From NCBI GenBank assembly GCA_041665145.1, contig JBAYJK010000004.1:132434-189719 (forward strand): 57,286 bases of DNA, given 5' to 3'. The notes beneath the pieces are model-generated. The model had not been told where the DNA came from. It saw only the letters and a list, made by a program, of their open reading frames with translations, and made no database searches. Position 1 is the first letter of the stretch, and each line of letters begins with the position of its first letter. A program made the translations under genes and the position numbers. Below, piece after piece: positions 29,549 through 42,713 of this stretch. The DNA comes from Patescibacteria group bacterium (GTDB taxonomy: Bacteria > Patescibacteriota > Microgenomatia > UBA1406).

Positions 29549-30880
29549 ATGGACGAATACTCTTTGTGGAAAAAGACGCTTGATGAAATTGCTCTTGAGG
29601 TGTCTCCGATCGCATTTGATTCTTTCTTTCAAAAAACAAAGACTTCTCATGTTGAAAACAACACTCTTTATGTGACGTGTCCAAACGATGGGGTTTCTTT
29701 TGTTTTAGAAAACAAATATCGGGGGATCGTTGAAACAATTCTCAAAAAATACAGTGGAGGAGTTGTGCTTCGAGCAATTTTCGTTCCCGCCGAGAAAACA
29801 ATCCCTGAAGGAAAAACACCCATGGCCCCTTTATTTAGAAACGAGTCGGTAGACATTTTAAGCAGAGTACAGCAATCCGGAATATCTCCCATCCTGACTT
29901 TTGATAATTTTGCGGTTTCTATTTCAAATCAAATGGCTCATGCCGCATCCATTGCTGTCTCCCGGGGTCCGGGAAGAACATACAACCCGTTGTTTATCTG
30001 GGGAGGTGTGGGGGTCGGTAAAACACATTTGTTGCATGCTGTTGGTAGAAAAATAATAGAAACCACCAACATGACAGTAAAATACGCGTCGACAGAAGAG
30101 TTTACAAACGCTCTTGTTGAAGGAATACGTACTAAAAACACAAACACGTTTCGCAGAAAATTCCGAAACATTGACGTTTTATTATTGGACGATATCCAGT
30201 TTGTCTCCCAGCGCGACTTCATACAGGAAGAGTTGTTTCACACCTTCAACAAGCTACAATCAATGAATAAACAGGTAATATTCACCTCGGACAAGCCTCC
30301 CAAAGCAATCAAAAACATCGAACAACGGCTTGTTTCCCGTTTCTTAAGTGGTCTTGTTGTTGATATACAACCCCCTGATTTTGAATTGAAAACTGCGATC
30401 CTACTCATAAAAGCCCAGGAGAAAAAATTGGACATCTCCATTGAGGTTGCCAAAACAATAGCCGCACATATTGAGGAGCTTCGGGAATTGGAGGGTTTTT
30501 TACTAAAACTCAGCTCGCTTAAAGAGTCAAATATAGAGATAAAGAAGGAAACAGTAGAGAGGTTGTTGGCTCAATCAAGCTTCATTAACCAGTCACGGAT
30601 AAACCCGAAAGATGTGATCGTTGCCGTATCTAAAGAGATGGGGGTGCGTGTAAAAGACCTTAAAGAAGACAGTCGGAAGAAGAACATAGCGCTTTCACGG
30701 CACGTCGCCATGTATTTGTTAAAAACACTCACCAGCCTTACGTATGAAGAAATAGCCTACCTTACCGGAAGAAAAGACCACACAACCGTTATGCACGGGG
30801 TCCAAAAGATAATCACCACTCTTTCCGTAAATGAGGACCTTCGAAAAACGGTTGAAAGAATTAAATTATACGTCTCATAA
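29549..30880 (+). CDS. dnaA: chromosomal replication initiator DnaA
   Basis: YNPLFIWGGVGVGKTHL, DVLLLDDIQF and KDHTTVMHG motifs. Confidence 0.98.
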   Translation: MDEYSLWKKTLDEIALEVSPIAFDSFFQKTKTSHVENNTLYVTCPNDGVSFVLENKYRGIVETILKKYSGGVVLRAIFVPAEKTIPEGKTPMAPLFRNESVDILSRVQQSGISPILTFDNFAVSISNQMAHAASIAVSRGPGRTYNPLFIWGGVGVGKTHLLHAVGRKIIETTNMTVKYASTEEFTNALVEGIRTKNTNTFRRKFRNIDVLLLDDIQFVSQRDFIQEELFHTFNKLQSMNKQVIFTSDKPPKAIKNIEQRLVSRFLSGLVVDIQPPDFELKTAILLIKAQEKKLDISIEVAKTIAAHIEELRELEGFLLKLSSLKESNIEIKKETVERLLAQSSFINQSRINPKDVIVAVSKEMGVRVKDLKEDSRKKNIALSRHVAMYLLKTLTSLTYEEIAYLTGRKDHTTVMHGVQKIITTLSVNEDLRKTVERIKLYVS

Positions 30881-30996
30881 TTATCCACACACTTATCCAC
30901 ATGATCAACACATATAAAAAGAACGTTGAAACAACAAGCGGCTTCTTTTGTAACTTGGTTATCAACTTTTCCACAGTTGTACTATAATCACTATAT
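30881..30996. other. oriC (dnaA-dnaN intergenic DnaA-box cluster)
   Basis: TTATCCACA at 30881-30889 and 30893-30901, TTATCAACT at 30959-30967, TTTTCCACA at 30967-30975, then an AT-rich tract. Confidence 0.8.
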
Positions 30997-32103
30997 ATGA
31001 AATTTACTGTTATCCGAGAACGCTTCTACTCAACATTGCAAAAGGCGGGGTATTTTATTTCTTCAAAGGTTAACGATAACGGACTGCTGCGATGCGTACA
31101 TATAGAAGCAGAGACGGAGGGTATAACAGTAAAGACATCTTCTGTTACGGAATATTTCATCGGCGAAGTTGGTGGAAAAGTGGAGGAGAGCGGTGTCGTT
31201 TTGGTTGATTTCAAAACCCTTCTTGAAGTTGTAAAATCCACACAAGACACAAAAATCGATGTGGAAAACCTCAAGGGAACCCTAGTAATCAAGAGCAAAC
31301 AGGGAACAGTTAAGCTTCCTACGCTCGATACCTCAACCTTTCCACAACAACCGAAACTGTCCGAGACCGAGGCATTAGATGTGACGTTCTTTGTTTCAAA
31401 AACCACACAACCCGTTCTGTTTGCGGCCGCAACCGACGAAACCAGGCCTATTCTTACCGGCTTGTGTTTTGATTTTCTTGAAGAAAAGACCAATATTGTC
31501 GGTACTGACGGCTTCAGAATGTCTCTTATGTCGCTGGAGAATGTCAAAAAGGGCGGCAAGAAAAAAAGGATGATCATCTCGGCAAGAAGCCTTTTGTCCG
31601 TACAGAAAGTTCTTCAAGACCAGTTTAAGAAGGTGTCTTTCGAAGAGGGCTCCGGATACGTATTGTTCTCGGGTGAGGGTTGTGTTGTTTATGTGCGTCT
31701 CTTGGATGGAGAGTATCCACCATATGAACGGGTGGTGCCGCAAGACAAGGAAACCAAAGTTATCATAAAAAAAGAAGAGCTCCTGAACACAATCAAGACG
31801 GCGTCTCTTTTTGCCCGCGAGGGTTCGAACATGATCGGTTTCGGTGTTGTTGGCGACGAGCTTTTGTTAACAGCTTCAAGTGCAAGTTTGGGAGAGGCGA
31901 GTCTTAGAGTGCCGACCATAGAAAAGGAAGGGTCTGACAATAAGATAACATTTAACTACCGTTACGTGCTTGACTTTTTACAGGTGGTTTCGGGCGAAGA
32001 TGTCAGTTTGCAGATAATCAACCCGTTTGCACCTGGAATTTTTCAGATGAGCAAAAACCCCAACCTGCTCCATATTATTATGCCAATACGGACCGAGGGT
32101 TAG
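30997..32103 (+). CDS. dnaN: DNA polymerase III beta clamp
   Basis: DETRPILTG, GTDGFRMS, RLLDGEYPPYERVVP and IIMPIR motifs. Follows dnaA. Confidence 0.97.
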   Translation: MKFTVIRERFYSTLQKAGYFISSKVNDNGLLRCVHIEAETEGITVKTSSVTEYFIGEVGGKVEESGVVLVDFKTLLEVVKSTQDTKIDVENLKGTLVIKSKQGTVKLPTLDTSTFPQQPKLSETEALDVTFFVSKTTQPVLFAAATDETRPILTGLCFDFLEEKTNIVGTDGFRMSLMSLENVKKGGKKKRMIISARSLLSVQKVLQDQFKKVSFEEGSGYVLFSGEGCVVYVRLLDGEYPPYERVVPQDKETKVIIKKEELLNTIKTASLFAREGSNMIGFGVVGDELLLTASSASLGEASLRVPTIEKEGSDNKITFNYRYVLDFLQVVSGEDVSLQIINPFAPGIFQMSKNPNLLHIIMPIRTEG

Positions 32104-32770
32104 GTCTGTGGAAGACGTTCCGCCAGAACATAAGTGTATAATCCCAAAAAAAACGCCGCGGTGTTTTAAATATCCTCCGCGCGGATGTTTCCATAAGTAT
32201 GTTTCTGTTGAAAACAATTTTCCCGACACGCGAAAGATGTTGGGCAAGATCAAAGTCCTCATGAAGCAGCAAGTTGTCCGAACAGGGTGATATTTTTTTG
32301 AAGGCCGACACCCGAATTCCCTTATTCGGCCCAAAAACCACCGAATGCCCAAGAAAGAAAGAAGCAATCAAAGCAAGCGCGTACGAGGGGTAACGACCCA
32401 GATATCCGTAGGGGGGCTCGGTAAAAACAACGGGCCCAGATACCGCAACGGCAAATGGGTGTTTTTCGAATGCCTCTTCCATTAATTTCAACCAATTTTT
32501 CGGCGGTAAAGAATCCGCGTCGGTTTGACAAACAACATCCCCTTGCGCACTACGGAAACCGCAGTCGCGCGCATATGCCATCCCCTGCTTTGTTTCTCGC
32601 ACAACGCGCACGTTTTTAAATTGCAGCGCGACCTGTACTGAGGTGTCGGTGCAATTGTTGTCTACCACAATAATTTCGTCAGCCGCCCGTTCTTGGTTGG
32701 AAAGAGCGAGTAAACAATTCTTTAAAAGAACCTCCTCATTATAAACAGGGATCACCACAGAAATATGCAT
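32078..32770 (-). CDS. glycosyltransferase family 2
   Basis: VVIPVYNEE, VVDNNCTD, TDADS and EDFDL motifs. Confidence 0.92.
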   Translation of the reverse strand: MHISVVIPVYNEEVLLKNCLLALSNQERAADEIIVVDNNCTDTSVQVALQFKNVRVVRETKQGMAYARDCGFRSAQGDVVCQTDADSLPPKNWLKLMEEAFEKHPFAVAVSGPVVFTEPPYGYLGRYPSYALALIASFFLGHSVVFGPNKGIRVSAFKKISPCSDNLLLHEDFDLAQHLSRVGKIVFNRNILMETSARRIFKTPRRFFWDYTLMFWRNVFHRPNPRSVLA

Positions 32771-32823
32771 TAAGATAATTTTATCATGTTGTTTTTTGTT
32801 GTTAAAAAAAATACAATTAAGGC

Positions 32824-33264
32824 ATGTCTTATACTGCTCTCGGCGTTGTTGTTGTTTGGAATGTTCTTTTAACTCTTGTTTTGGTTTATATATGGTTTTT
32901 TCTCAAGAGTTTTTTTCCTCAGAAAAAACGCGGAATTCACCAAGCCATTGAGGACAGTATTGGGCGCAGTGAGAAACTTGACAAACAAATTCAACAAATG
33001 ACGGAAGAAATAAAAAATCACAAAGAACAAACAAAAACGAGTTTCAAAAAACTCGGACTTGTCCGGTTTAATCCTTTCGACAGGCTGGGGGGCGAACAAA
33101 GCTATTGCTTAGCGCTCTTGAATGAAAAAAAAGACGGTTTTGTGATCACCTTTTTGTATACACACGAAGGAGTTCGGGTATACGTCAAGGAGGTTCTGGG
33201 AGGTAAGGGCGGCGAGGTAGATCTCTCGAAAGAAGAAGAAAAAGCAATTGTTAAAGCAATATAG
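32824..33264 (+). CDS. DUF4446-like membrane-anchored protein
   Basis: TM plus coiled coil, GLVRFNPF...GGEQSYCLALL and LSKEEEKAI motifs. Confidence 0.8.
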   Translation: MSYTALGVVVVWNVLLTLVLVYIWFFLKSFFPQKKRGIHQAIEDSIGRSEKLDKQIQQMTEEIKNHKEQTKTSFKKLGLVRFNPFDRLGGEQSYCLALLNEKKDGFVITFLYTHEGVRVYVKEVLGGKGGEVDLSKEEEKAIVKAI

Positions 33265-33283
33265 TTATGTTACATTCATAGGT

Positions 33284-34423
33284 ATGAAAAAAATAGTTAT
33301 TTTATGTATTCCGATCTATTTTGTGATTATGGGAGTTTCTTTCGTCTTGTTTTCCGGAATGTTGGGCGGAGCTCAGACAAAAACGCAGACAACCAACACA
33401 AACACCCCAACCGAAGGGGATAGCGGACCAAAAACAGAAGAATGTCCTTTAAACGGAGCATATTATTCAGTGCAACAGCGCCAGTTGTGGGAAAAAAGGC
33501 GCCCGCTCGGTGTTATGGTAGAAAACTCAACCGACGCGCGACCTCAGTCAGGATTATCTAAGGCGGACGTTGTTTTTGAGGCGGTTGCTGAAGGGGGAAT
33601 AACGCGTTTTCTTTCGGTTTTTTACTGCCAGACATCGCCAATCGTAGGACCTGTGCGCAGTGCACGTGTATATTTTCTCGATTTTATCGGCGGTTTTGGA
33701 GAATCGCCACTTTACGCTCATGTGGGAGGGGCAAATACTCCGGGGCCTGCAAATGCGCTTGGCCAAATCGAAGATATGGATTGGGTTGGGTACAACGACA
33801 TAAACCAATTTTCTGTCGGTTACCCTGTTTTTTGGCGGGACTACGAGCGTTTACCCGGAGTTGCAACCGAACACACAATGTACACCGATACAAGCAAGCT
33901 TTGGAAAACAGCGGCTTCTCGTGATCTGACAAATGTTGATGAAGAGGGGGTTTCGTGGGACAAAACTTTTGTTCCTTGGGTATTCAAAGAAGAATCTCCC
34001 TTGGAAAAGCGTCCAGCAACCGCCTCGGTTGCGTTCGGTTTCTGGGAAGATTATCGTCAATTCAACGTGGTCTGGACATATAATAAAACAACAAATACGT
34101 ATACCCGCACCAACGGAGGGAAGAAACACCTTGATAAAGCAACGAACAAACAACTTCAAGCAAAAACCATCGTTATTGTTTACATGGACGAAGGTGTAGC
34201 TGATGATGGTTATGACCAAGGACAACATCTCTTGTATGGAACAAAAGGGACCGGAGATGCCGTGATTCTGCAAGACGGGACCGTCACCAAGGGCTCGTGG
34301 GCAAAAAAAGACCGGTTTACCCAGATCAGATTTTATGACGCGAGTGACGAGGAAGTAAAATTCAACCGTGGGACTATTTGGGTAGAAGTCTTACCAACCG
34401 GCAATAAGGTTGTTTATAAATAA
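33284..34423 (+). CDS. DUF3048-like surface protein
   Basis: VENSTDARPQSGL, AEGGITRF, GPVRSAR and GTIWVEV motifs. Start moved to ATG 33284. Confidence 0.85.
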   Translation: MKKIVILCIPIYFVIMGVSFVLFSGMLGGAQTKTQTTNTNTPTEGDSGPKTEECPLNGAYYSVQQRQLWEKRRPLGVMVENSTDARPQSGLSKADVVFEAVAEGGITRFLSVFYCQTSPIVGPVRSARVYFLDFIGGFGESPLYAHVGGANTPGPANALGQIEDMDWVGYNDINQFSVGYPVFWRDYERLPGVATEHTMYTDTSKLWKTAASRDLTNVDEEGVSWDKTFVPWVFKEESPLEKRPATASVAFGFWEDYRQFNVVWTYNKTTNTYTRTNGGKKHLDKATNKQLQAKTIVIVYMDEGVADDGYDQGQHLLYGTKGTGDAVILQDGTVTKGSWAKKDRFTQIRFYDASDEEVKFNRGTIWVEVLPTGNKVVYK

Positions 34424-34425
34424 GT

Positions 34426-35001
34426 ATGTTGTATAGTTTGTTTTCAGGAAGAGCCAAAACCAAGGCCCTTTTTCTTTTGTACGAACACCCGCGGGAAAAG
34501 TTTCATATGCGCCAGATTGAACGCCTAACCCACGAACGGATTAACTCTGTTAGAAGTGCGCTTATAGCGCTTACTAAAGAGGGTGTTTGTAGCAAGGAGG
34601 CTATTGGTAAAAAAACATTTTTTCAAGCGAACCAGAATTACGTTTTTTTTGACGAACTGCTTAGAATTGTTGCAAAAAACACGGGGTTGGGGGGGCGCAT
34701 TGTCAAAGAGAAGCTTAAGCTCGGGAAAATTAAAACAGCCTTTTTAAGTCTGGGGTTCTATCGTCAACTTGCACGGACAACTGAAGATATTGATCTTTTT
34801 ATAGTCGGGAGCGTTCCGGTTGCAGAAATTGCGAAGGTTGCAAAAGAAGAGGGTGATAAGCGGGGGGTGGAGATTAATTATAGCGTAATGACACCGGAAG
34901 AATTTGTTTTCAGAAAGAAAAACAAGGATCCGTTTCTTTTATCCATTCTTCAAAAAGGGCGATTGGTGTTAATCGGCAACGAGGATATTTATTCTGATTA
35001 A
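34426..35001 (+). CDS. wHTH plus degenerate minimal-nucleotidyltransferase fusion
   Basis: N-terminal HTH (MRQIERLT...SVRSALIAL), C-terminal EDIDLFIVG and EINYSVMTPEEF. Confidence 0.75.
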   Translation: MLYSLFSGRAKTKALFLLYEHPREKFHMRQIERLTHERINSVRSALIALTKEGVCSKEAIGKKTFFQANQNYVFFDELLRIVAKNTGLGGRIVKEKLKLGKIKTAFLSLGFYRQLARTTEDIDLFIVGSVPVAEIAKVAKEEGDKRGVEINYSVMTPEEFVFRKKNKDPFLLSILQKGRLVLIGNEDIYSD

Positions 35002-35035
35002 AAAAAGAGCCCCGACTTTCATCGGGACTCCTTTT
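35001..35035. terminator. bidirectional intrinsic terminator
   Basis: AAAAAA-GAGCCCCGAC-TTTC-ATCGGGACTC-CTTTT between convergent genes. Confidence 0.8.
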
Positions 35036-35051
35036 ACCTTACCTTACAGCA

Positions 35052-35255
35052 TTACTCTTGTGGTGCATCCAAGCTATCCCAGTCTTTTTGACTGACGAAC
35101 TTTGTTAGTCGTACCCCTCCAACTACTGCACGAAGGGCGTATCGCACCTGTGTTCCACCGTCTTTTGTCTGACGTTCGTATTTCGTTTTTTTAACGTCCT
35201 TGTCAGAAACGTCTACTTTTTTTCTATTTTTTACGTCGTAAAATTGTATATCCAT
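35052..35255 (-). CDS. small basic beta-rich protein, candidate CC1-like DNA-binding protein
   Basis: MDIQFYDVKNRKKV...ERQTKDG...YALRAVVGGVRLTKFV. Very strong SD and its own terminator. Confidence 0.8.
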   Translation of the reverse strand: MDIQFYDVKNRKKVDVSDKDVKKTKYERQTKDGGTQVRYALRAVVGGVRLTKFVSQKDWDSLDAPQE

Positions 35256-35260
35256 GAAGT

Positions 35261-35271
35261 ATCACCTCCCT
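35261..35271 (-). promoter_or_regulatory. extended Shine-Dalgarno AGGGAGGTGAT
   Basis: Lies 5 nt upstream of ATG 35255 and complements the canonical 16S 3' end. Confidence 0.85.
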
Positions 35272-35273
35272 TC

Positions 35274-35519
35274 TTATAGGTGTCTAAAATAAGACAAATA
35301 CAAGATATATTGTAGTACGATGAAAAGAAAAGTCAATCCAAGGCTCTTTGCAAGTTCTTTTTTAAGAATTGCCGCGTAATTTATGACATGTGGAACAGAG
35401 CCGGTGGTCTTGGTGGGTTGGTCTTTATTTAAAAGAAAAGAGGGTTTTTCGGGTGCTCTATATAGCTTGGCAACTTCCTGAATTCGTCGGGAATCTGTGT
35501 TTCTTTTTTTCGTTTGCAT
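35274..35519 (-). CDS. small hypothetical protein with C-terminal TM
   Basis: Basic N-terminus and LGLTFLFIVLQYILYL hydrophobic tail. Confidence 0.6.
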   Translation of the reverse strand: MQTKKRNTDSRRIQEVAKLYRAPEKPSFLLNKDQPTKTTGSVPHVINYAAILKKELAKSLGLTFLFIVLQYILYLSYFRHL

Positions 35520-35551
35520 AGGATAAAAAAACTAACTAGAATAACAGTATA

Positions 35552-36055
35552 ATGCAGAAAGAGGGAATTAGCAATAAAACAGTCTATTTTGAGTGGGAGG
35601 CACCGGTTCGTCATTTTGAACAAAAAACACAATCGTACTTTCGGGCAATTATTGCGCTCGGCGTTTTACTAACCCTTGCTTTGTATTTCTTGGGGGAGTA
35701 TTTATTAATCTTGGTGGTGTGGTCGGTGGTCTTTGTTTTCTATGTTAAAGCAGCAATTCCTCCACAAAACGCTCTCTATAAGTTGACTAAATTCGGTATT
35801 CAATTCTATCAGCACACCATTCCCTATGAGGTGCTTCGAGGGTTTACGGTTGTGCATAAAAGCACGAACACATTATTGAGAATCTTTGTGTCAGAAGAGA
35901 ACTCGTACGAGATGCACATCTTGTTACCACAAGGCGATGAAGAAGAGAAGATTCTGGCCTTCTTGGAGGAAAAGGTTCCGTTTATTGAGCATATTCCAAA
36001 AACAAATATAGAGCGTTTCTCTTCGTGGGTCGGTTCATTTCTGGGGCTGTCTTAA
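35552..36055 (+). CDS. hypothetical 2-TM protein with PH-like C-terminal domain
   Basis: FEWEAP, two TM helices and a beta-rich tail. Confidence 0.75.
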   Translation: MQKEGISNKTVYFEWEAPVRHFEQKTQSYFRAIIALGVLLTLALYFLGEYLLILVVWSVVFVFYVKAAIPPQNALYKLTKFGIQFYQHTIPYEVLRGFTVVHKSTNTLLRIFVSEENSYEMHILLPQGDEEEKILAFLEEKVPFIEHIPKTNIERFSSWVGSFLGLS

Positions 36056-36648
36056 AGACTTTTCACTTTTTGGGAGAGCAGCTCAGGAGTCATCTCTTTA
36101 CATCCAAATTTGCGTGCCCATTCCAACAACCCATTATCCGAGGTAACAAGCGTTGCATCCCTCTCTCTTGCTAAGAGAATTAATCCGAGGTCGGTGGTGG
36201 AATCAAGGAACCCTTCCCGGGTTGCCCGTCGATATTTTTCACGCAGCGAGCCAATATATGTCTGTGCCGTCTCTGGAGAATTGTCCGGGTGTTTTGAAAC
36301 AATTTCCTTGATAGGTTCTTCAGCAACCCTCAAACCCTTATATAAACGCACTCCTATTTCACGAACCAATTCATAAAACAACGTTGCATCAAGGTGAATG
36401 TTGGTGAGCGAAGGGGAGGCTATTGTTATTACACCCATGAGATCGTCGATGGCGGATGGGTGTGTTTCGAAAAACGACCGGATTTCTTTTGCTGCCTCCG
36501 GTGTCGTAAGAAACTCGCATTTTTCCTCCTTCACAGAAGCACGGACGAGTTTAACGAAATTTTCAACAACCTCTTCCTTATTTTTTCCCAGATTGATAGA
36601 CCGTTGCAGGTTGACAAAAAAGTTAGTGTCGATCACATACGTAATCAT
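36052..36648 (-). CDS. HARP, protein-only RNase P (Aq_880-like PIN nuclease; often annotated RNA ligase partner protein)
   Basis: YVIDTN, KGLRVAEE and LREKYRRATREGFLDSTTD...LVTSDNGLLEWA match the Aq_880 motif pattern, with the catalytic Asp positions retained. Confidence 0.88.
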   Translation of the reverse strand: MITYVIDTNFFVNLQRSINLGKNKEEVVENFVKLVRASVKEEKCEFLTTPEAAKEIRSFFETHPSAIDDLMGVITIASPSLTNIHLDATLFYELVREIGVRLYKGLRVAEEPIKEIVSKHPDNSPETAQTYIGSLREKYRRATREGFLDSTTDLGLILLARERDATLVTSDNGLLEWARKFGCKEMTPELLSQKVKSL

Positions 36649-36724
36649 AGGATCAGTATATCATACCCACTCTGATGCTTATAAACCCTTGTAAAAACAA
36701 GCGGCATTTAGTATTCTTCATTTC

Positions 36725-37708
36725 ATGAATAAACAAACACCAAATCCCAAACTGGAAGCTGTTGCTCTTGCGATGGATCAGATAAAAAAACAATATGGAA
36801 AAGGAGCGATTATGCGTTTTGGCGAAAAGCCTTTTGAAAAAGTGGAGGTTCTTAAAACCGGGGTCTTTGGATTGGATGTGGGGTTGGGTGTTGGCGGGCT
36901 ACCCCGTGGTAGGGTTGTTGAGATTTTTGGTCCGGAAGCTTCGGGGAAGACCACTATCTGTTTGTCGGTCATTGCTCAGACACAGAAGAATGGTGGAATT
37001 GCTGCCTTTATTGATGCCGAACATGCACTCGATCCCCAATGGGCGCGTATATTGGGTGTAGATCTTGACAATCTTCTCATCTCGCAACCAGACACCGGAG
37101 AGCAGGCCCTAGAGATCGCAGAGACCCTTGTGAGGAGCGGTGGGGTGGATCTCGTGGTTATAGACTCCGTTGCTGCACTTGTCCCCAAATCCGAGATTGA
37201 AGGAGAGATGGGTGATTCCTCTATGGGTGTCCAAGCACGCCTTATGTCACAAGCACTCCGAAAACTCACCGGTATTATGTCGAAATCAAAAACAACTGTA
37301 ATATTTACAAACCAGATACGCCAGAAAATTGGGGTGTTTTTCGGGAACCCCGAGACAACTCCCGGAGGGTTGGCGTTGAAGTTTTATGCTTCGGTCAGAA
37401 TTGATGTTCGCCGCATACAGGTCATTAAAAAGGGAGATGAGGTTGTTGGAACACGTACTAAGATAAAGATTATTAAGAATAAAATGGCCCCTCCTTTTAA
37501 AGAAGCAGAGGTGGTTATCTCGGCGGCTGGAATTGATGAAATGGGCTCCGTGATCGACACAGCGCTTCTAAAAAATATTTTGACAAAAAGCGGATCCTTC
37601 ATAAAATACAAAGATAAAACTTTGGGACAAGGGTACGAAGATACTAAGAAAACATTGTCGGGAGACAAAAAACTCCTACAAGAAATAGAGGCGGCTCTTT
37701 TGGTGTGA
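36725..37708 (+). CDS. recA: recombinase RecA
   Basis: [30 protein letters not shown] and [10 protein letters not shown] motifs. Confidence 0.99.
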
Positions 37709-38394
37709 GCGGTTTTCTAACCACCTTCTTTTTGCCCCACTTCTGTGTTGGTTGTTTGCGGCCAGGGGTAACCATATGTCAATCATGCCTTGAAAGTTGT
37801 GTCTTGTATTCTCCCCAGCGGTGTGTGGTTTGTGGTAAGCCATCATTTCTCGGCTTTACTCATTATGAATGCAGGAGAAAAACACAAATTAATGGAGTTT
37901 ACTCATTTTTTTATTATCAACCACCCTTGCGACAAGCAATTAAGAATTGCAAGTTTAGGCACAATAAAGAAATTTTAAACGACATATTACACACACTAAC
38001 TCCTCCAGTCCTTTCTCCCCTCTGGGAGCTGAAAAAAATGTACCCAAATCTGATTGCATCCTTTGTTCCCCAAACCAATGATGTCTATAAAAGCCGGGGC
38101 TTCAATCAATCGTATGTGATTGCCACATATCTTTCTCGGGCTCTTAAAATTCCACTTTATGATTTGTTCAAAAAAGTAAGTCGCACAAAACACCAATCGC
38201 AACTGACCAGAGAAGAGCGAAAAAATAACTTGGGAGGCGCCTTCAGGTTTACGGTAGGAAAGTCCCCAAAAAACATTTTATTGGTCGATGACATTATTAC
38301 AACAGCGACGACTGTAGATACATTGGCGGGATTGGTGAAAACAACAAACCCTCAAAACCGTCTCCACGCCGTTTCGATTATGAGAGCACGGTAA
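37705..38394 (+). CDS. comF: ComF-family PRTase-like competence protein
   Basis: Double Zn ribbon (CVGC, CQSC, CVVC), RGFNQS and [12 protein letters not shown] motifs. GTGA overlap with recA. Confidence 0.88.
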
Positions 38395-39243
38395 TCAGAA
38401 GGGGAGTTCAATATATTTACGGATACTTTTGGCCGTTTGCGAAATACTCTGAAGAAGTTTGTTGTTTTTTTCGCTTCTTGATCCATTACCGTCAAAGACA
38501 TGACCGCCCATCGGGTATTTAAACAGGTCTTTCTTGATAGGCTCCCCCATAAGCGTATAGATACCCGCTATTGTATATTGGCGCAAAAACTCAAGATATC
38601 CAATTTTTTCGGGTCTCCTGAACGAAGGGTAGAGATAGATGTCCTTAAAAACTTTCAGTATCACTCCTATTTTTCTCGCCCGTTGAATCAGGTCGTGATC
38701 CTCGGCAAGCTTCAGGGTTGTGTCGAATTTCCCTATGCGGGCAAACAACATCTTTTCAATAATAATATTGAAACCGGGGGCAAACGGCTTTCCAAGAATA
38801 TTCAACACATCAATCATAAAATTTGTAAGTTCCATAAGGATGATCTGTGTTTGTTGGTTTTCTTTTGCAACAAGACTTGTTGTAGCGAGAAGAACTTTGG
38901 TTTTCTCGAGATTTGAATGTAGCTTGCGCAGGAACCCTTGTGGCAGTTGATCGTCAGCATCAAAAAAAACCAAATACTGTCCACGCGCTTTCTCTGAACC
39001 GAAGTTTCTTTGTGAAGCAACATTCTTGGCATTATGAATATAAAAATACAATTCCATTTTACCCCGCTTCTGATACTTGTTTACCTCAGTCTTTGTATTG
39101 TCAGTTGAGTTTCCGTCAACAACAATCACCTCGTACTGTTTGAACGACTGTTTTTCAATGTCCCCCAAAAGCTTAGGAAGGTCCCGCTCTTCATTTAATG
39201 CAGGAATTATAATTGAAAAAAATGGGTTAGTTGTATGTTCCAT
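38395..39243 (-). CDS. glycosyltransferase family 2
   Basis: IIIPALNEE, VVDGNSTD, FFDAD and AEDHDL motifs. Start moved to ATG 39243. Confidence 0.92.
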   Translation of the reverse strand: MEHTTNPFFSIIIPALNEERDLPKLLGDIEKQSFKQYEVIVVDGNSTDNTKTEVNKYQKRGKMELYFYIHNAKNVASQRNFGSEKARGQYLVFFDADDQLPQGFLRKLHSNLEKTKVLLATTSLVAKENQQTQIILMELTNFMIDVLNILGKPFAPGFNIIIEKMLFARIGKFDTTLKLAEDHDLIQRARKIGVILKVFKDIYLYPSFRRPEKIGYLEFLRQYTIAGIYTLMGEPIKKDLFKYPMGGHVFDGNGSRSEKNNKLLQSISQTAKSIRKYIELPF

Positions 39244-39276
39244 ACTTTGTATGTGCAAATATTTTATACTATTTCT

Positions 39277-39447
39277 GTGATAAAGAAAGTTATTGGAATT
39301 ATACTACTAACGTGTGGAATTGGCCTGGCTCTGTATGTTATATACGTACGCGTTACCGATACCCAACCGGAATTATCGCCGATTCCCAATAATGATAATG
39401 TACGAATAATCATTCTCAGCCCGGGTGTAACTCAAAAAGCCCAATAA
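39277..39447 (+). CDS. small single-TM protein (LSPIP motif)
   Basis: GTG start 6 nt after TATACT, followed by an N-terminal TM. Confidence 0.55.
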   Translation: MIKKVIGIILLTCGIGLALYVIYVRVTDTQPELSPIPNNDNVRIIILSPGVTQKAQ

Positions 39448-39456
39448 ATCAACAGA

Positions 39457-39756
39457 TTACTGGGGAATGGTAAATGTTGTTAAGTTTATTCCTAAAACAC
39501 CACCAACAATACGCAGTATCACGAAAGACGAGCTGATAATGGCAAGTCCCAAGAGAGCGGAGAAGAAAACTCCTTTTGCTTTTTTCAACCTCGCCGGATC
39601 GTCGCCTGCCAATAACCACTGGAGGGATCCGTAGAAGAAAAGATACACAAGCAAAAGGAAAATGATACCACCGAGTGCCATAAGAATGTTTTGAAACAGA
39701 ATCTCTCCGCACGCCAACGTAGGAACCCCATCAATAAGACAACTATTCCATGACAT
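39457..39756 (-). CDS. VirB2/TrbC-like pilin
   Basis: TM-(GSLQWLLAGDDPARLKKAK)-TM hairpin. Confidence 0.8.
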   Translation of the reverse strand: MSWNSCLIDGVPTLACGEILFQNILMALGGIIFLLLVYLFFYGSLQWLLAGDDPARLKKAKGVFFSALLGLAIISSSFVILRIVGGVLGINLTTFTIPQ

Positions 39757-39796
39757 GTGTTTTACTATCTCAAAAATCTTTTAATCGTACCCTTAC

Positions 39797-40141
39797 TTAG
39801 TTGGCATTACCAAAGCGGGGGATGTTGAGCTGTCTGGTGAATCCGAGACCAAAGCTAAAGATTTGTTCGATGGCAATGATGATTGCAACCGTCGCAAACA
39901 AAATGACAAAGCCGATTAATGCATTGGTAATTCTGTTACGTGCTTTTGCAACTTTTTCTTTATCTCCGGTTGACTGGATCCATTCAAAACCACCGTAAAG
40001 CAGATTATAAACTACCATTAAACCCGCCCCGATAAAAAACAAGCGGATGATCCAACCCAATATGTCCATTAAATTCAAATTTCCGGCAAGAAAATCCGGC
40101 CGCGTAATGTTCCCTGTAAGTTGTGCTAAAACAGTACTCAT
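39797..40141 (-). CDS. VirB2/TrbC-like pilin
   Basis: GGFEWIQSTGDKEKVAKARNRITNALIG loop between two TMs. Confidence 0.85.
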   Translation of the reverse strand: MSTVLAQLTGNITRPDFLAGNLNLMDILGWIIRLFFIGAGLMVVYNLLYGGFEWIQSTGDKEKVAKARNRITNALIGFVILFATVAIIIAIEQIFSFGLGFTRQLNIPRFGNAN

Positions 40142-40193
40142 TTATTATTTTAAAAACTACTAATAACAGACCTGAATTCAGTATAGTGGGTTG

Positions 40194-41912
40194 CTAGAAA
40201 TTGTCAAGAGCATATATGCCGTTCTTGTACAGGAACAAAATCTTATCGTCATTATATACACCGAACATTCGAACATCCTTCAACTTGGGATTGAATATTG
40301 ATTTTTTCACCGCACCGGTTTTATCTATTGCCACTATTCGTGATTCTCGAGGACTCAAGCCGTAAAGATACTCGGTGCCGTTCTTATTAAGGAACGTAAG
40401 GTTTGGTACGACTGTTGTCGGGGTGATGGAAAACGCCTCTTTTGCACCGCCGGTGTATTTGAGAATGTTGTTTCCCGTCAGAATATATACTGAGAAGTCA
40501 ATGGTGAACGATTTTGCATCCGAGAGATTTATACTGCTCCCCGATTGAAAATAACTTGTCGCGTCACTGTACCCGTTTTCTATAGGGATGTATTTGAAAA
40601 TCTCATCTTTTGCCGTATCAAGGAGATATATATTGCTGTTAAATAATTGCAGATCAATAACCGAACCCCACAGTTTATCTGCCGGCACAATAATGGTGGC
40701 TTTATCCGGTGTTACCCGATAGATGCCTTTTTGCTTGTTGAACGCATATGCGGTATTGTCACTACAGCCAATCAGTTGTGACTCTTTCGCGTTAGCGAAG
40801 GGGTAGCTGTCTTGCGCTTTTGATTCGACATCGACGACATAAATACGATTATTTGTCCGGTCGATCATACAAACAGAGTTTTTGGATGCCGATATCTGAT
40901 CAGCGCGTGCACCAGCTCCAATGAGTCGAAGATCAAAGAACAGACTGTCTGTGCTTACGTGTGTGTCGCCCAGCATGGTATTCAGGTTAGAAACTTGTTT
41001 GGCAAGCGGTTCGAGTGTTGTCTTTTTTTCGGGGTACTCCTGAATAAGTTTTTGTATGGCGGAACGCAATGTGGAAACTTTGGTTGCCCCTGTCGGATCG
41101 GCAAAAAGATTTTTTCTCAGCCGTTCCACTTCTGGTTGAATTATAGAAAGTTCTTTACTAAACTCTGCTTCGTGTTGGCTTCTGACCGTCTCCTGAATTG
41201 TGGTAAATATCTTCCAGCCAACTATAAAAACTACGCATATTAACAGTATCCACCGTGCCTTTTTAAACAGGTCTGCAACCGATCGTTTTGACTCCGGTTC
41301 GGCGATGTGTAGATTGACTGTTTCCCGCGGGGCGGGAGTATTGGTGGTGTCGGTTATCGAAACCGAGACCGGTGCTTTTTCGATGGAGACTACAAGACAG
41401 GCTGCGGGAATGTTTTTGTTGGAAACCATAGAATCCGAAATGAAGTCGGTTATTTTTTTTGGCTCTTGACCAGGCGGAATCGTATGCACATCAAACTGGG
41501 TGAGGAAAGAATCGGTGCTGAGTAAAAACAAATCTCCAGACTCGGTGTTTCCTGATGCCTGCTGCGTACCTTGGGACACAGAATACCACTCGGTGTTCCG
41601 TTGCAACTCAATTCCTCCATGGTGCGACACTGCAAACAAGGTGTCCCCACCAACATATAAAGCGGCGAGCGAACTGACCGAGTGTTGGGAAACAAAGTCC
41701 TGCAGATACGAGCTGAACGCATGAAGTGAGACAAACTTTTGAGAATGCACCTGTTGATGCAGTGTCTCAAGAGTTTCGCGTAGAGCCGTCTCGCTGCCAC
41801 CTGCTTCATGGTCAATCTCAACAACGCACACAAAAGAACTCTCCACATCAAACCCGACACTTTTTGTTTCCGTATTTTTTCCGAGGTAAACAGAAAACTT
41901 TTTTTCAATCAT
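40194..41912 (-). CDS. bitopic protein: degenerate PP2C-like N-domain, TM, helical stalk, beta-propeller-like C-domain
   Basis: GDLFLLSTDSF resembles a PP2C motif. C-terminal repeats YLLDT/IYILT resemble propeller blades. Confidence 0.7.
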   Translation of the reverse strand: MIEKKFSVYLGKNTETKSVGFDVESSFVCVVEIDHEAGGSETALRETLETLHQQVHSQKFVSLHAFSSYLQDFVSQHSVSSLAALYVGGDTLFAVSHHGGIELQRNTEWYSVSQGTQQASGNTESGDLFLLSTDSFLTQFDVHTIPPGQEPKKITDFISDSMVSNKNIPAACLVVSIEKAPVSVSITDTTNTPAPRETVNLHIAEPESKRSVADLFKKARWILLICVVFIVGWKIFTTIQETVRSQHEAEFSKELSIIQPEVERLRKNLFADPTGATKVSTLRSAIQKLIQEYPEKKTTLEPLAKQVSNLNTMLGDTHVSTDSLFFDLRLIGAGARADQISASKNSVCMIDRTNNRIYVVDVESKAQDSYPFANAKESQLIGCSDNTAYAFNKQKGIYRVTPDKATIIVPADKLWGSVIDLQLFNSNIYLLDTAKDEIFKYIPIENGYSDATSYFQSGSSINLSDAKSFTIDFSVYILTGNNILKYTGGAKEAFSITPTTVVPNLTFLNKNGTEYLYGLSPRESRIVAIDKTGAVKKSIFNPKLKDVRMFGVYNDDKILFLYKNGIYALDNF

Positions 41913-41914
41913 TT

Positions 41915-42172
41915 TTACAATAAGAACAACGCATATAACAATAACACAAATCCTATAACGAGCTGAAGGTAGCCTGCCGCAAAAAACACATAGTTCTGCT
42001 CATCTTTATAATTATGGTTAAGTTTGCGCAATTCCTGATAAAACACCATAGCCCACACGTTATACAGAATTATAGTAATAATCCCCACAATTTTAAAACC
42101 AGTATCGAGGATATTTATACCCTGAATCGCTGAAATAAGTATCAGAAACGGTGCGAACAGATTATTATCCAT
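41915..42172 (-). CDS. small membrane protein (DUF5657-like)
   Basis: 85 aa, 2-3 TM. Start moved to ATG 42172. Confidence 0.6.
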   Translation of the reverse strand: MDNNLFAPFLILISAIQGINILDTGFKIVGIITIILYNVWAMVFYQELRKLNHNYKDEQNYVFFAAGYLQLVIGFVLLLYALFLL

Positions 42173-42713
42173 GACGATGTTGTTGTTGCATGAGGTTGTT
42201 GATAACTTGAACAACCCTGCTCGGAAACGGAACATTCAAAAACTCTATGTTCGGTTCTTCTCCCGCGGTTTGGACAAAAACATTACCATAATTAAACAAG
42301 GCACTGAAAAACCCGAGATTTTTGTTGTTTACTTCTTCAATCCGAGAAATAAGTGTTTGAGTGGTTTGGTTGTTGAGAATATTTATCACATCCACGTCAA
42401 TGATTTTTTTCGATGTAATAATCCCCAGGTTGAAGTACCAAGAGAAGAGATTCGCGAGTGCGAACAGGAAAAAGAAAGCATACCAAACAAGGACAAGAAA
42501 AGTGATTTGCATTCCCGAGAAAGGCAAGAGGTTGACAAGTGAGCCAAAAATGACTGGAATTATCAGGCCGACTAAAGTAATGATAAACCACACGAGATTT
42601 GTGATGGGATGCGCGCGTAGTGTTAAAACAACATTTTCATCCCCATCTTGCGTAGAGAATCGCATTGGCGGGTACTCGCAATATGAATGTAGTAATCGGT
42701 GTGAAGACGGCAT
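42165..42713 (-). CDS. membrane protein with bacterial PH-like domain
   Basis: LTLRAHP, two TM, IITSKKIID and FNYGNVFVQTAG motifs. Confidence 0.8.
   Translation of the reverse strand: MPSSHRLLHSYCEYPPMRFSTQDGDENVVLTLRAHPITNLVWFIITLVGLIIPVIFGSLVNLLPFSGMQITFLVLVWYAFFFLFALANLFSWYFNLGIITSKKIIDVDVINILNNQTTQTLISRIEEVNNKNLGFFSALFNYGNVFVQTAGEEPNIEFLNVPFPSRVVQVINNLMQQQHRHG

Follow-up and report, generated by a model that had tools for sequence, protein, structure and literature searches.

The window analysed here, a 57,286-nucleotide stretch of a Patescibacteria group bacterium (assembly GCA_041665145.1, contig JBAYJK010000004.1, positions 132,434 to 189,719), carries on its minus strand a 198-residue open reading frame (ORF) with an ATG start that almost certainly encodes a genuine HARP (so named as a homolog of the RNase P found in Aquifex), the protein-only form of RNase P. 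The source genome spans 1.212 Mb in four contigs, is 100% complete with 0.49% contamination, and has the window on its contig 4; its order is the one listed by NCBI as Candidatus Roizmanbacteria, in the Microgenomates group of the Candidate Phyla Radiation (CPR)/Patescibacteria.

36052..36648, minus strand: HARP ORF, 198 aa (ORF, PF08745, TIGR03875, PDB matches, Aq880 alignment, structure model)

The original prediction had recognised this ORF as a HARP from a set of motifs, all of which are found: YVIDTN at residues 4-9, GLRVAEE at 105-111, LREKYRRATREG at 135-146, LDSTTD at 148-153, TSDNGL at 169-174 and WA at 177-178. The profile search that it had proposed as a check agrees, the top profile being PIN_5/TIGR03875: PF08745 (PIN_5) matches with 142.9 bits (E 1e-41; cut-off 27 bits), residues 4-197 covering profile positions 2-202 of 205, and TIGR03875 of NCBIfam gives 141.6 bits where the cut-off is 95.3. 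All seven significant matches in the PDB are chains named "RNA-free ribonuclease P" (E 1e-27 to 7e-19), from Planctomycetes GWF2_40_8, Thermococcus celer, Aquifex, Hydrogenobacter and Halorhodospira, and BLASTP against full-length Aquifex Aq880 gives 33% identity, aligning residues 1-198 with 1-187 of 192. The AlphaFold model, computed from a 73-sequence alignment (predicted local distance difference test, pLDDT, 85.7; predicted template-modelling score, pTM, 0.80), has the PIN-like nuclease core with an inserted two-helix spike/protruding-helix domain (helices 88-119 and 125-144) and a C-terminal helix (188-197) that aligns with Aq880 residues up to 187 of 192. In Foldseek, the top 34 matches to this model are all HARPs, with template-modelling (TM) scores of 0.86-0.91 and a root-mean-square deviation (rmsd) of 2.1-2.3 A on the pre-tRNA-bound Aquifex and Hydrogenobacter enzymes (8kd9_E, TM 0.86/0.91; 8kda_E, TM 0.87/0.91, rmsd 2.3 A). 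Public databases (NCBI, UniRef) name the proteins of this clade only "RNA ligase partner protein".

Membership of the PIN superfamily and a weak match to the generic PIN family PF01850 might suggest an ordinary VapC-like toxin or defence nuclease, or else an archaeal gene contaminating the assembly. Both ideas are almost certainly wrong, and effectively refuted by profile, order-wide presence and fold: PF01850 reaches 18.7 bits, under its cut-off, against 143 bits for PIN_5; the best non-HARP PIN domain in Foldseek, VapC4, has a TM score of only 0.44 as compared with 0.86-0.91 for HARPs; there is no antitoxin partner; and the gene, with typical composition, has recA on one side and dnaA/dnaN on the other in a 190-kb contig, and 58 of 61 relatives have it too.

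Few ribozymes have been retained by nearly all organisms, and RNA-based RNase P is among them. The original prediction had suggested that a protein may do its work in this organism, in its place or alongside it, and had named a search for rnpB and rnpA as the check on replacement; in the complete genome neither gene was found. For rnpB, the models RF00010, RF00011 and RF00373 reach at best 5.6, 11 and 9.4 bits in the genome against cut-offs of 84-100 (a pre-filter followed by Infernal, which is not exhaustive), the sensitive mode of Infernal gives no RNase P match in the 57-kb window, and a whole-genome scan for the CR-I/CR-V motifs returns only chance-level pairs with at least two mismatches. 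The sole exact match to the P4 core in an ORF-free gap, found by a regular-expression scan outside the window (C2:62141), was rejected because it lies inside rpmE. For rnpA, PF00825 has no match in the genome at E<=10 and tblastn finds nothing. The canonical rpmH-rnpA slot is closed, since rpmH is followed directly by era, its stop overlapping the start of this Era-type GTPase by 4 nt, and neither rnpA nor yidC lies beside dnaA, where secDF and an unrelated 128-residue orphan ORF occupy that side. The GTPase beside rpmH has MMR_HSR1 and KH_2 domains (G000 C1:176248-177257); era is reported as lost in most CPR lineages (review, PMC10582724).

The original prediction spoke of a single bacterium; the replacement that it proposed is supported, but the feature belongs to a whole order rather than to one genome. 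Among 61 genomes of the order to which the source genome belongs (three families, 35 genera), HARP is above cut-off in 58 and rnpB is found in none at E<=0.01 (pre-filter, then Infernal). As a positive control, the same search detects rnpB in 282 of 301 Patescibacteria (94%), and in 16/16 genomes of the class that belong to other orders (E 1e-11 to 1e-42), while the three genomes of the order itself in the control sample are rnpB-negative. rnpA is above cut-off in two of the 61. One of these, in the relative G008, was rejected as a sign of a persisting ribonucleoprotein (RNP) enzyme: it is a binning contaminant, because the 3.3-kb contig that carries it (rpmH-rnpA-yidD) also encodes a YidC of the diderm type, recognisable by its long periplasmic domain. 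Non-extreme habitats are indicated by the sample names of related metagenome-assembled genomes (MAGs), in which aquifers and groundwater, a cold CO2 geyser, lakes and surface water appear. Dozens of third-party (TPA) records of Roizmanbacteria/Microgenomates MAGs (L022, L024, L029 and others) are titled "uncultured Gammaproteobacteria bacterium", titles that would hide the lineage from taxonomy-based surveys of HARP.

As in Aquificaceae, then, rnpB and rnpA are both missing from the source genome, so that HARP would be the sole RNase P. We consider, with a probability of roughly 0.75, that HARP acts as the only RNase P of this organism and of a whole CPR order from which rnpB and rnpA have been lost. 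The RNP enzyme (rnpB RNA and RnpA) would have been lost at the base of Candidatus Roizmanbacteria, and HARP would have been acquired once in the order and inherited vertically since.

How such an enzyme would work can be approached through its active site. In Aquifex HARP, mutagenesis identifies D7, D138, S139, E141, D142 and D160 as active-site residues, and the AaHARP variants D7N, S139A and E141Q are inactive (PMC12217051); in the spike helix of Aq880, R129A is inactive and R125A nearly so (PMC8266387). The corresponding elements of the window protein are the following.

36628..36630, minus strand: codon of Asp7, equivalent to catalytic D7 of Aq880 (invariant in 73/73 clade sequences; D7N inactive in AaHARP)
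36217..36387, minus strand: spike-/protruding-helix hairpin, residues 88-144, with Arg136 and Arg140, equivalent to Aq880 R125 and R129 (model helices, alignment)
36190..36204, minus strand: D149-S150-T151-T152-D153 segment, equivalent to Aq880 D138-S139-K140-E141-D142 (codons read directly; Asp, Ser and Asp kept)
36136..36138, minus strand: codon of Asp171, equivalent to catalytic D160 of Aq880 (clade alignment; PMC12217051)

The claim that the catalytic Asp and substrate-binding Arg positions are intact is thus borne out in that all four catalytic Asp of Aq880 (D7, D138, D142 and D160) are kept, as D7, D149, D153 and D171, together with the equivalents of Ser139 and of Arg125/Arg129; it fails to extend to Glu141, which is Thr152 here. 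In 73 clade sequences that are only ~38% identical to the window protein, D7, T8, D149, S150, D153, D171 and the elbow-binding R136 are invariant and R140 is kept in 72; K138 and R144 are conserved too, and the equivalents of Aq880 K119 and R123 are T130 and S134 in the window protein. The Glu141 position in the same 73 sequences is Ala (54), Thr (15), Val (3) or Gly (1), and it is never acidic in 101/101 CPR-type sequences. Across 120 sampled clusters of the family, it is Glu in 90/90 classical HARPs (Thermococcales, Aquifex and others) and Ala, Thr or Gly in 30/30 CPR-type ones; in a FastTree phylogeny of 191 sequences, a single split with a support of 1.0 unites the 101 non-Glu HARPs. The supported split and the clade-wide non-Glu position thus mark a distinct HARP subfamily with a variant catalytic centre. 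Within this subfamily a spike-helix loop (residues ~116-130) shorter by about 10 residues than in the other two families of the order sets apart the window protein and its nearest relatives (L022, P0015, P0018, P0029), which form a subclade (support 1.0) with Thr instead of Ala at the Glu141 position. Directly after catalytic Asp171, the window protein has Asn172 (codon 36133-36135), where 68/73 relatives and Aquifex (E161) have Glu.

HARP is a ~22-kDa PIN-like metallonuclease with an inserted helical hairpin; extrapolating from the solved Aquifex and Hydrogenobacter enzymes, the protein should form homo-oligomers as large as dodecamers. The Arg-rich spike helix (Arg136, Arg140) would let one dimer hold the tRNA elbow, and an adjacent dimer would remove the 5' leader by two-metal-ion catalysis with Asp7, Asp149, Asp153 and Asp171, together with Ser150. 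Oligomerisation, catalytic mechanism, cleavage of pre-tRNA and the single origin of the clade HARP are all points that we infer.

The tRNA genes themselves call for such an activity. The genome has 45 tRNA genes and a transfer-messenger RNA; 4 nt separate tRNA-Cys from tRNA-Ser, with tRNA-Tyr next in line, 81 nt separate tRNA-Arg from tRNA-Ile, and one tRNA-Ala sits inside the rRNA spacer. A recognisable -10 box precedes 28 tRNA genes, in only four of which it is placed for a start at +1, the median spacing implying leaders of roughly 3-10 nt, and 17 tRNA genes have no nearby promoter. Because tRNA genes are clustered and the promoters imply short leaders, an RNase P activity is needed; promoter spacing and tRNA clusters likewise led us to reject leaderless tRNAs of the Nanoarchaeum kind as a way of living without one. 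In this 100%-complete genome, none of the 45 tRNAs called by ARAGORN is a tRNA-Asn, and one tRNA-Ile is given a TAT anticodon.

Position -1 of the pre-tRNAs is U in 35, C in 8, G in 2 (one being the G-1 of tRNA-His) and A in none of the 45, an absence with a chance probability of ~3e-7 given the genome A frequency of 0.286. A G-C pair N-1:N73 exists only in tRNA-His, so no non-His pre-tRNA has its acceptor stem extended by G-C, which alone is not significant. The full CCA is encoded by only 7/45 tRNA genes, although N74 is C in 45/45, mostly followed by A; the U(-1)/C74 pattern could stem from an unusual 3'-end or CCA-addition pathway, or serve as a substrate code for HARP. Judged on their sequences, the Roizmanbacteria HARPs are a distinct subfamily, with a modified active site and a different substrate-leader signature.

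Several observations weigh against HARP being the sole RNase P. The Glu141 equivalent is missing across the clade, while E141Q abolishes cleavage by Aquifex HARP (PMC12217051). In HARP-only Aquifex, A occupies position -1 in 38/44 pre-tRNAs and is preferred by HARPs in vitro (PMC12439589), and this bias, which co-evolved with the Aquifex enzyme, is absent from the pre-tRNAs here. In vitro, no activity on pre-tRNA was seen with four HARPs of non-thermophilic bacteria (PMC9945441, PMC12153264). Even in sister orders, rnpB is a low-scoring match to RF00010 (E 1e-11 to 1e-42), so that a still more divergent RNA may have gone undetected here. Finally, the relative G003, a MAG of the same family that has HARP and no detected rnpB, carries the second of the two above-cut-off matches, an rnpA-like gene on an 11.8-kb, CPR-style contig of its 50-contig assembly. 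This gene (L018, G003:C46, 853-1233, minus strand) encodes 126 aa, matches PF00825 with 49 bits, is followed by a short YidC and is divergent from dnaA; it may be a remnant of rnpA, or else a fragment of another CPR organism that was binned together with G003.

One way to accommodate such observations is that a highly divergent RNase P RNA, with or without a protein cofactor, is the housekeeping enzyme and HARP an accessory, as in archaea or in bacteria that keep both forms. RNA-based RNase P is near-universal, archaeal HARP knockouts have no phenotype (PMC12153264), rnpB scores weakly in sister orders, and CPR structural RNAs are often unusual. Yet rnpB is found (pre-filter, then Infernal) in 0/61 genomes of the order as against 16/16 in sister orders, RnpA is lost in parallel, and there is no P4-core motif in any ORF-free gap, all of which makes a hidden RNA unlikely.

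Alternatively, the clade HARP might have another role in RNA processing, the 5' ends of tRNAs being made by an unknown endonuclease or by 5'-3' exonuclease trimming of very short leaders. The clade-wide loss of Glu141, the short predicted leaders and the missing A(-1) signature would suit this, as would the inactivity of several bacterial HARPs on pre-tRNA in vitro (PMC9945441) and the non-tRNA role, linked to an RNA ligase, that has been proposed for HARPs (PMC12153264). An Rnl3 RNA ligase co-occurs in 89% of HARP genomes, usually within 5 kb, and lies within 5 kb in 80% of the bacterial genomes with both HARP and ligase (PMC12153264). The HARP loci of Aquifex, Pyrococcus and a Thermotogae MAG have no ligase adjacent. 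Against a ligase-linked role here, no ligase domain is found in ORFs of at least 110 aa in window positions 29549-42713, covering 5 kb either side of HARP. The four Asp, Ser139 and the elbow-binding Arg, residues specific to pre-tRNA recognition, are invariant, and HARP was gained exactly where both RNP subunits were lost. An endonuclease is moreover required by the tRNA genes that lie 4 nt apart and by the tRNA of the rRNA spacer, and we know of no other candidate enzyme for tRNA 5' ends. A different role for the clade HARP is improbable on these grounds, and HARP as the order's RNase P remains the reading that we prefer.

The surroundings of the gene include the following features.

36655..36663, minus strand: extended -10 (TGaTATACT), 6 nt before the ATG (direct reading; no Shine-Dalgarno sequence between)
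36725..37708, plus strand: recA (PF00154, 427.9 bits; adjoins HARP in only 2/80 related loci)
35552..36055, plus strand: 167-aa membrane protein (transmembrane hairpin and PH-like domain), convergent with HARP, 3' overlap of 4 nt

The leaderless-type upstream sequence that had been described, TGATATACT-GATCCT-ATG, can be read on the minus strand at plus-strand coordinates 36646-36663, and from the placement of the extended -10 we infer that the HARP mRNA may be leaderless. A strict scan for paired -35/-10 hexamers does not call TGaTATACT a promoter, because it has no good -35. The divergence of HARP from recA is also as described, recA starting on the opposite strand at 36725, 76 nt away, but the arrangement is not conserved (2/80 loci), and a divergent recA-HARP promoter region was rejected as a conserved unit for that reason.

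The gene on the other side is a far more constant neighbour. The 167-aa gene lies tail-to-tail with HARP in 77/80 Roizmanbacteria loci, despite ~27% protein identity across them, and the 3' ends of the two ORFs overlap in 69/73 loci, most commonly by 56 nt (4 nt in the window). The protein has no Pfam match and no PDB sequence match; in its model (pLDDT 84.6) a transmembrane hairpin leads into a beta-sandwich that has a C-terminal helix, and Foldseek gives weak PH/PTB-superfold matches only. Since the physical interlock alone could explain the conserved gene order, a functional link between HARP and this membrane protein is speculation. The loss of Glu141 and the U(-1) signature could also be combined in a bolder scheme in which HARP is not the RNase P of the cell, and an undescribed enzyme or ribozyme matures 5' ends and splits tRNAs 4 nt apart, or in which HARP works only together with the interlocked membrane PH-like protein; we find this distinctly improbable. 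Further along, dnaA-dnaN (29549-32103), a probable replication-origin region, lies ~4 kb from HARP, and a gene for a 114-aa protein resembling type IV secretion system pilins (PF18895; 39797-40141, minus strand) sits beside that of a 572-aa protein without Pfam match (40194-41912, minus strand).

Set beside known systems, the Roizmanbacteria enzyme is closest in circumstance to the HARP of Aquificaceae (Aq880; PDB 7f3e, 8kd9, 8kda, 8ssf). Family, length and fold are the same (TM 0.86-0.91), the four catalytic Asp, Ser139, Arg125/Arg129 and the C-terminal helix of Aq880 align with the window protein, the source genome likewise lacks rnpB and rnpA, and in both cases no stable G-C pair extends the acceptor stem of non-His pre-tRNAs. 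There are nevertheless a number of differences: (i) identity is 33%, and Glu141 is replaced by Thr or Ala in the Roizmanbacteria clade; (ii) position -1 is U in 78% of pre-tRNAs and never A, as opposed to A in 38/44 in Aquifex; (iii) the hosts are ultra-small CPR bacteria, whose MAG names indicate groundwater, aquifers, lakes and surface water, and not hyperthermophiles; (iv) the 3' end of the HARP gene is interlocked with that of a membrane PH-like gene. The best sequence match among solved structures is the HARP of Planctomycetes bacterium GWF2_40_8 (PDB 7e8k, 7e8o; E 1e-27, ~35% identity), which also comes from a metagenome-assembled, apparently non-thermophilic bacterium and whose structure was solved with pre-tRNA; it keeps DSKED with Glu141, however, and in the tree it lies with the classical HARPs.

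Archaeal HARPs (Thermococcales, Halobacteria, methanogens) belong to the same family, those of Thermococcus/Pyrococcus with 35-39% identity, but they always occur beside an RNP enzyme and are dispensable (PMC6380272, PMC12153264), whereas no RNP was detected here; an Rnl3 RNA ligase usually co-occurs with them, and here there is no ligase within 5 kb. The HARPs of bacteria with both forms (Halorhodospira, Thioalkalivibrio, Methylacidiphilum, Thermodesulfatator) are again of the same family, except that functional rnpB and rnpA are kept there while RNP genes are not found here; 4/5 of the HARPs tested from such bacteria were inactive on pre-tRNA in vitro (PMC9945441). The eukaryotic PRORP, with its NYN domain, is an analogous replacement of the ribozyme by a PIN-like metallonuclease with four Asp, but it is monomeric and combines PPR, zinc-binding and NYN domains in an unrelated architecture of independent origin.

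According to reviews, HARP has replaced the RNP enzyme only in Aquificaceae (PMC10941002), and heat, extreme habitats and chance have been discussed as causes (PMC10941002, PMC12153264). A 2025 survey of >1 million genomes places bacterial HARPs only in Aquificales, Ectothiorhodospirales, Nitrococcales, Methylococcales and Thermodesulfovibrionales and associates them with extreme environments (PMC12153264). A single sentence in Daniels et al. (2019) mentions some "unclassified bacteria" with HARP only, using RnpA as a proxy, the RNA not being searched (PMC6380272), a remark on "some unclassified bacteria" that is repeated later (PMC9945441); in the full-text literature, we found nothing that pairs HARP or protein-only RNase P with CPR, Patescibacteria, Microgenomates or Roizmanbacteria. 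For annotation, the consequence is that HARPs of this clade are to be sought among proteins listed only as "RNA ligase partner protein". If HARP is indeed the sole RNase P, a whole order of ultra-small bacteria from non-extreme habitats would constitute a second, independent natural experiment in swapping a ribozyme for a protein, and one that argues against thermophily as the driver. The Glu141-less active site and the U-1 leader signature are directly testable variants in this regard, and more than 100 divergent sequences are at hand to explore which properties allow a HARP to serve as a cell's only RNase P.

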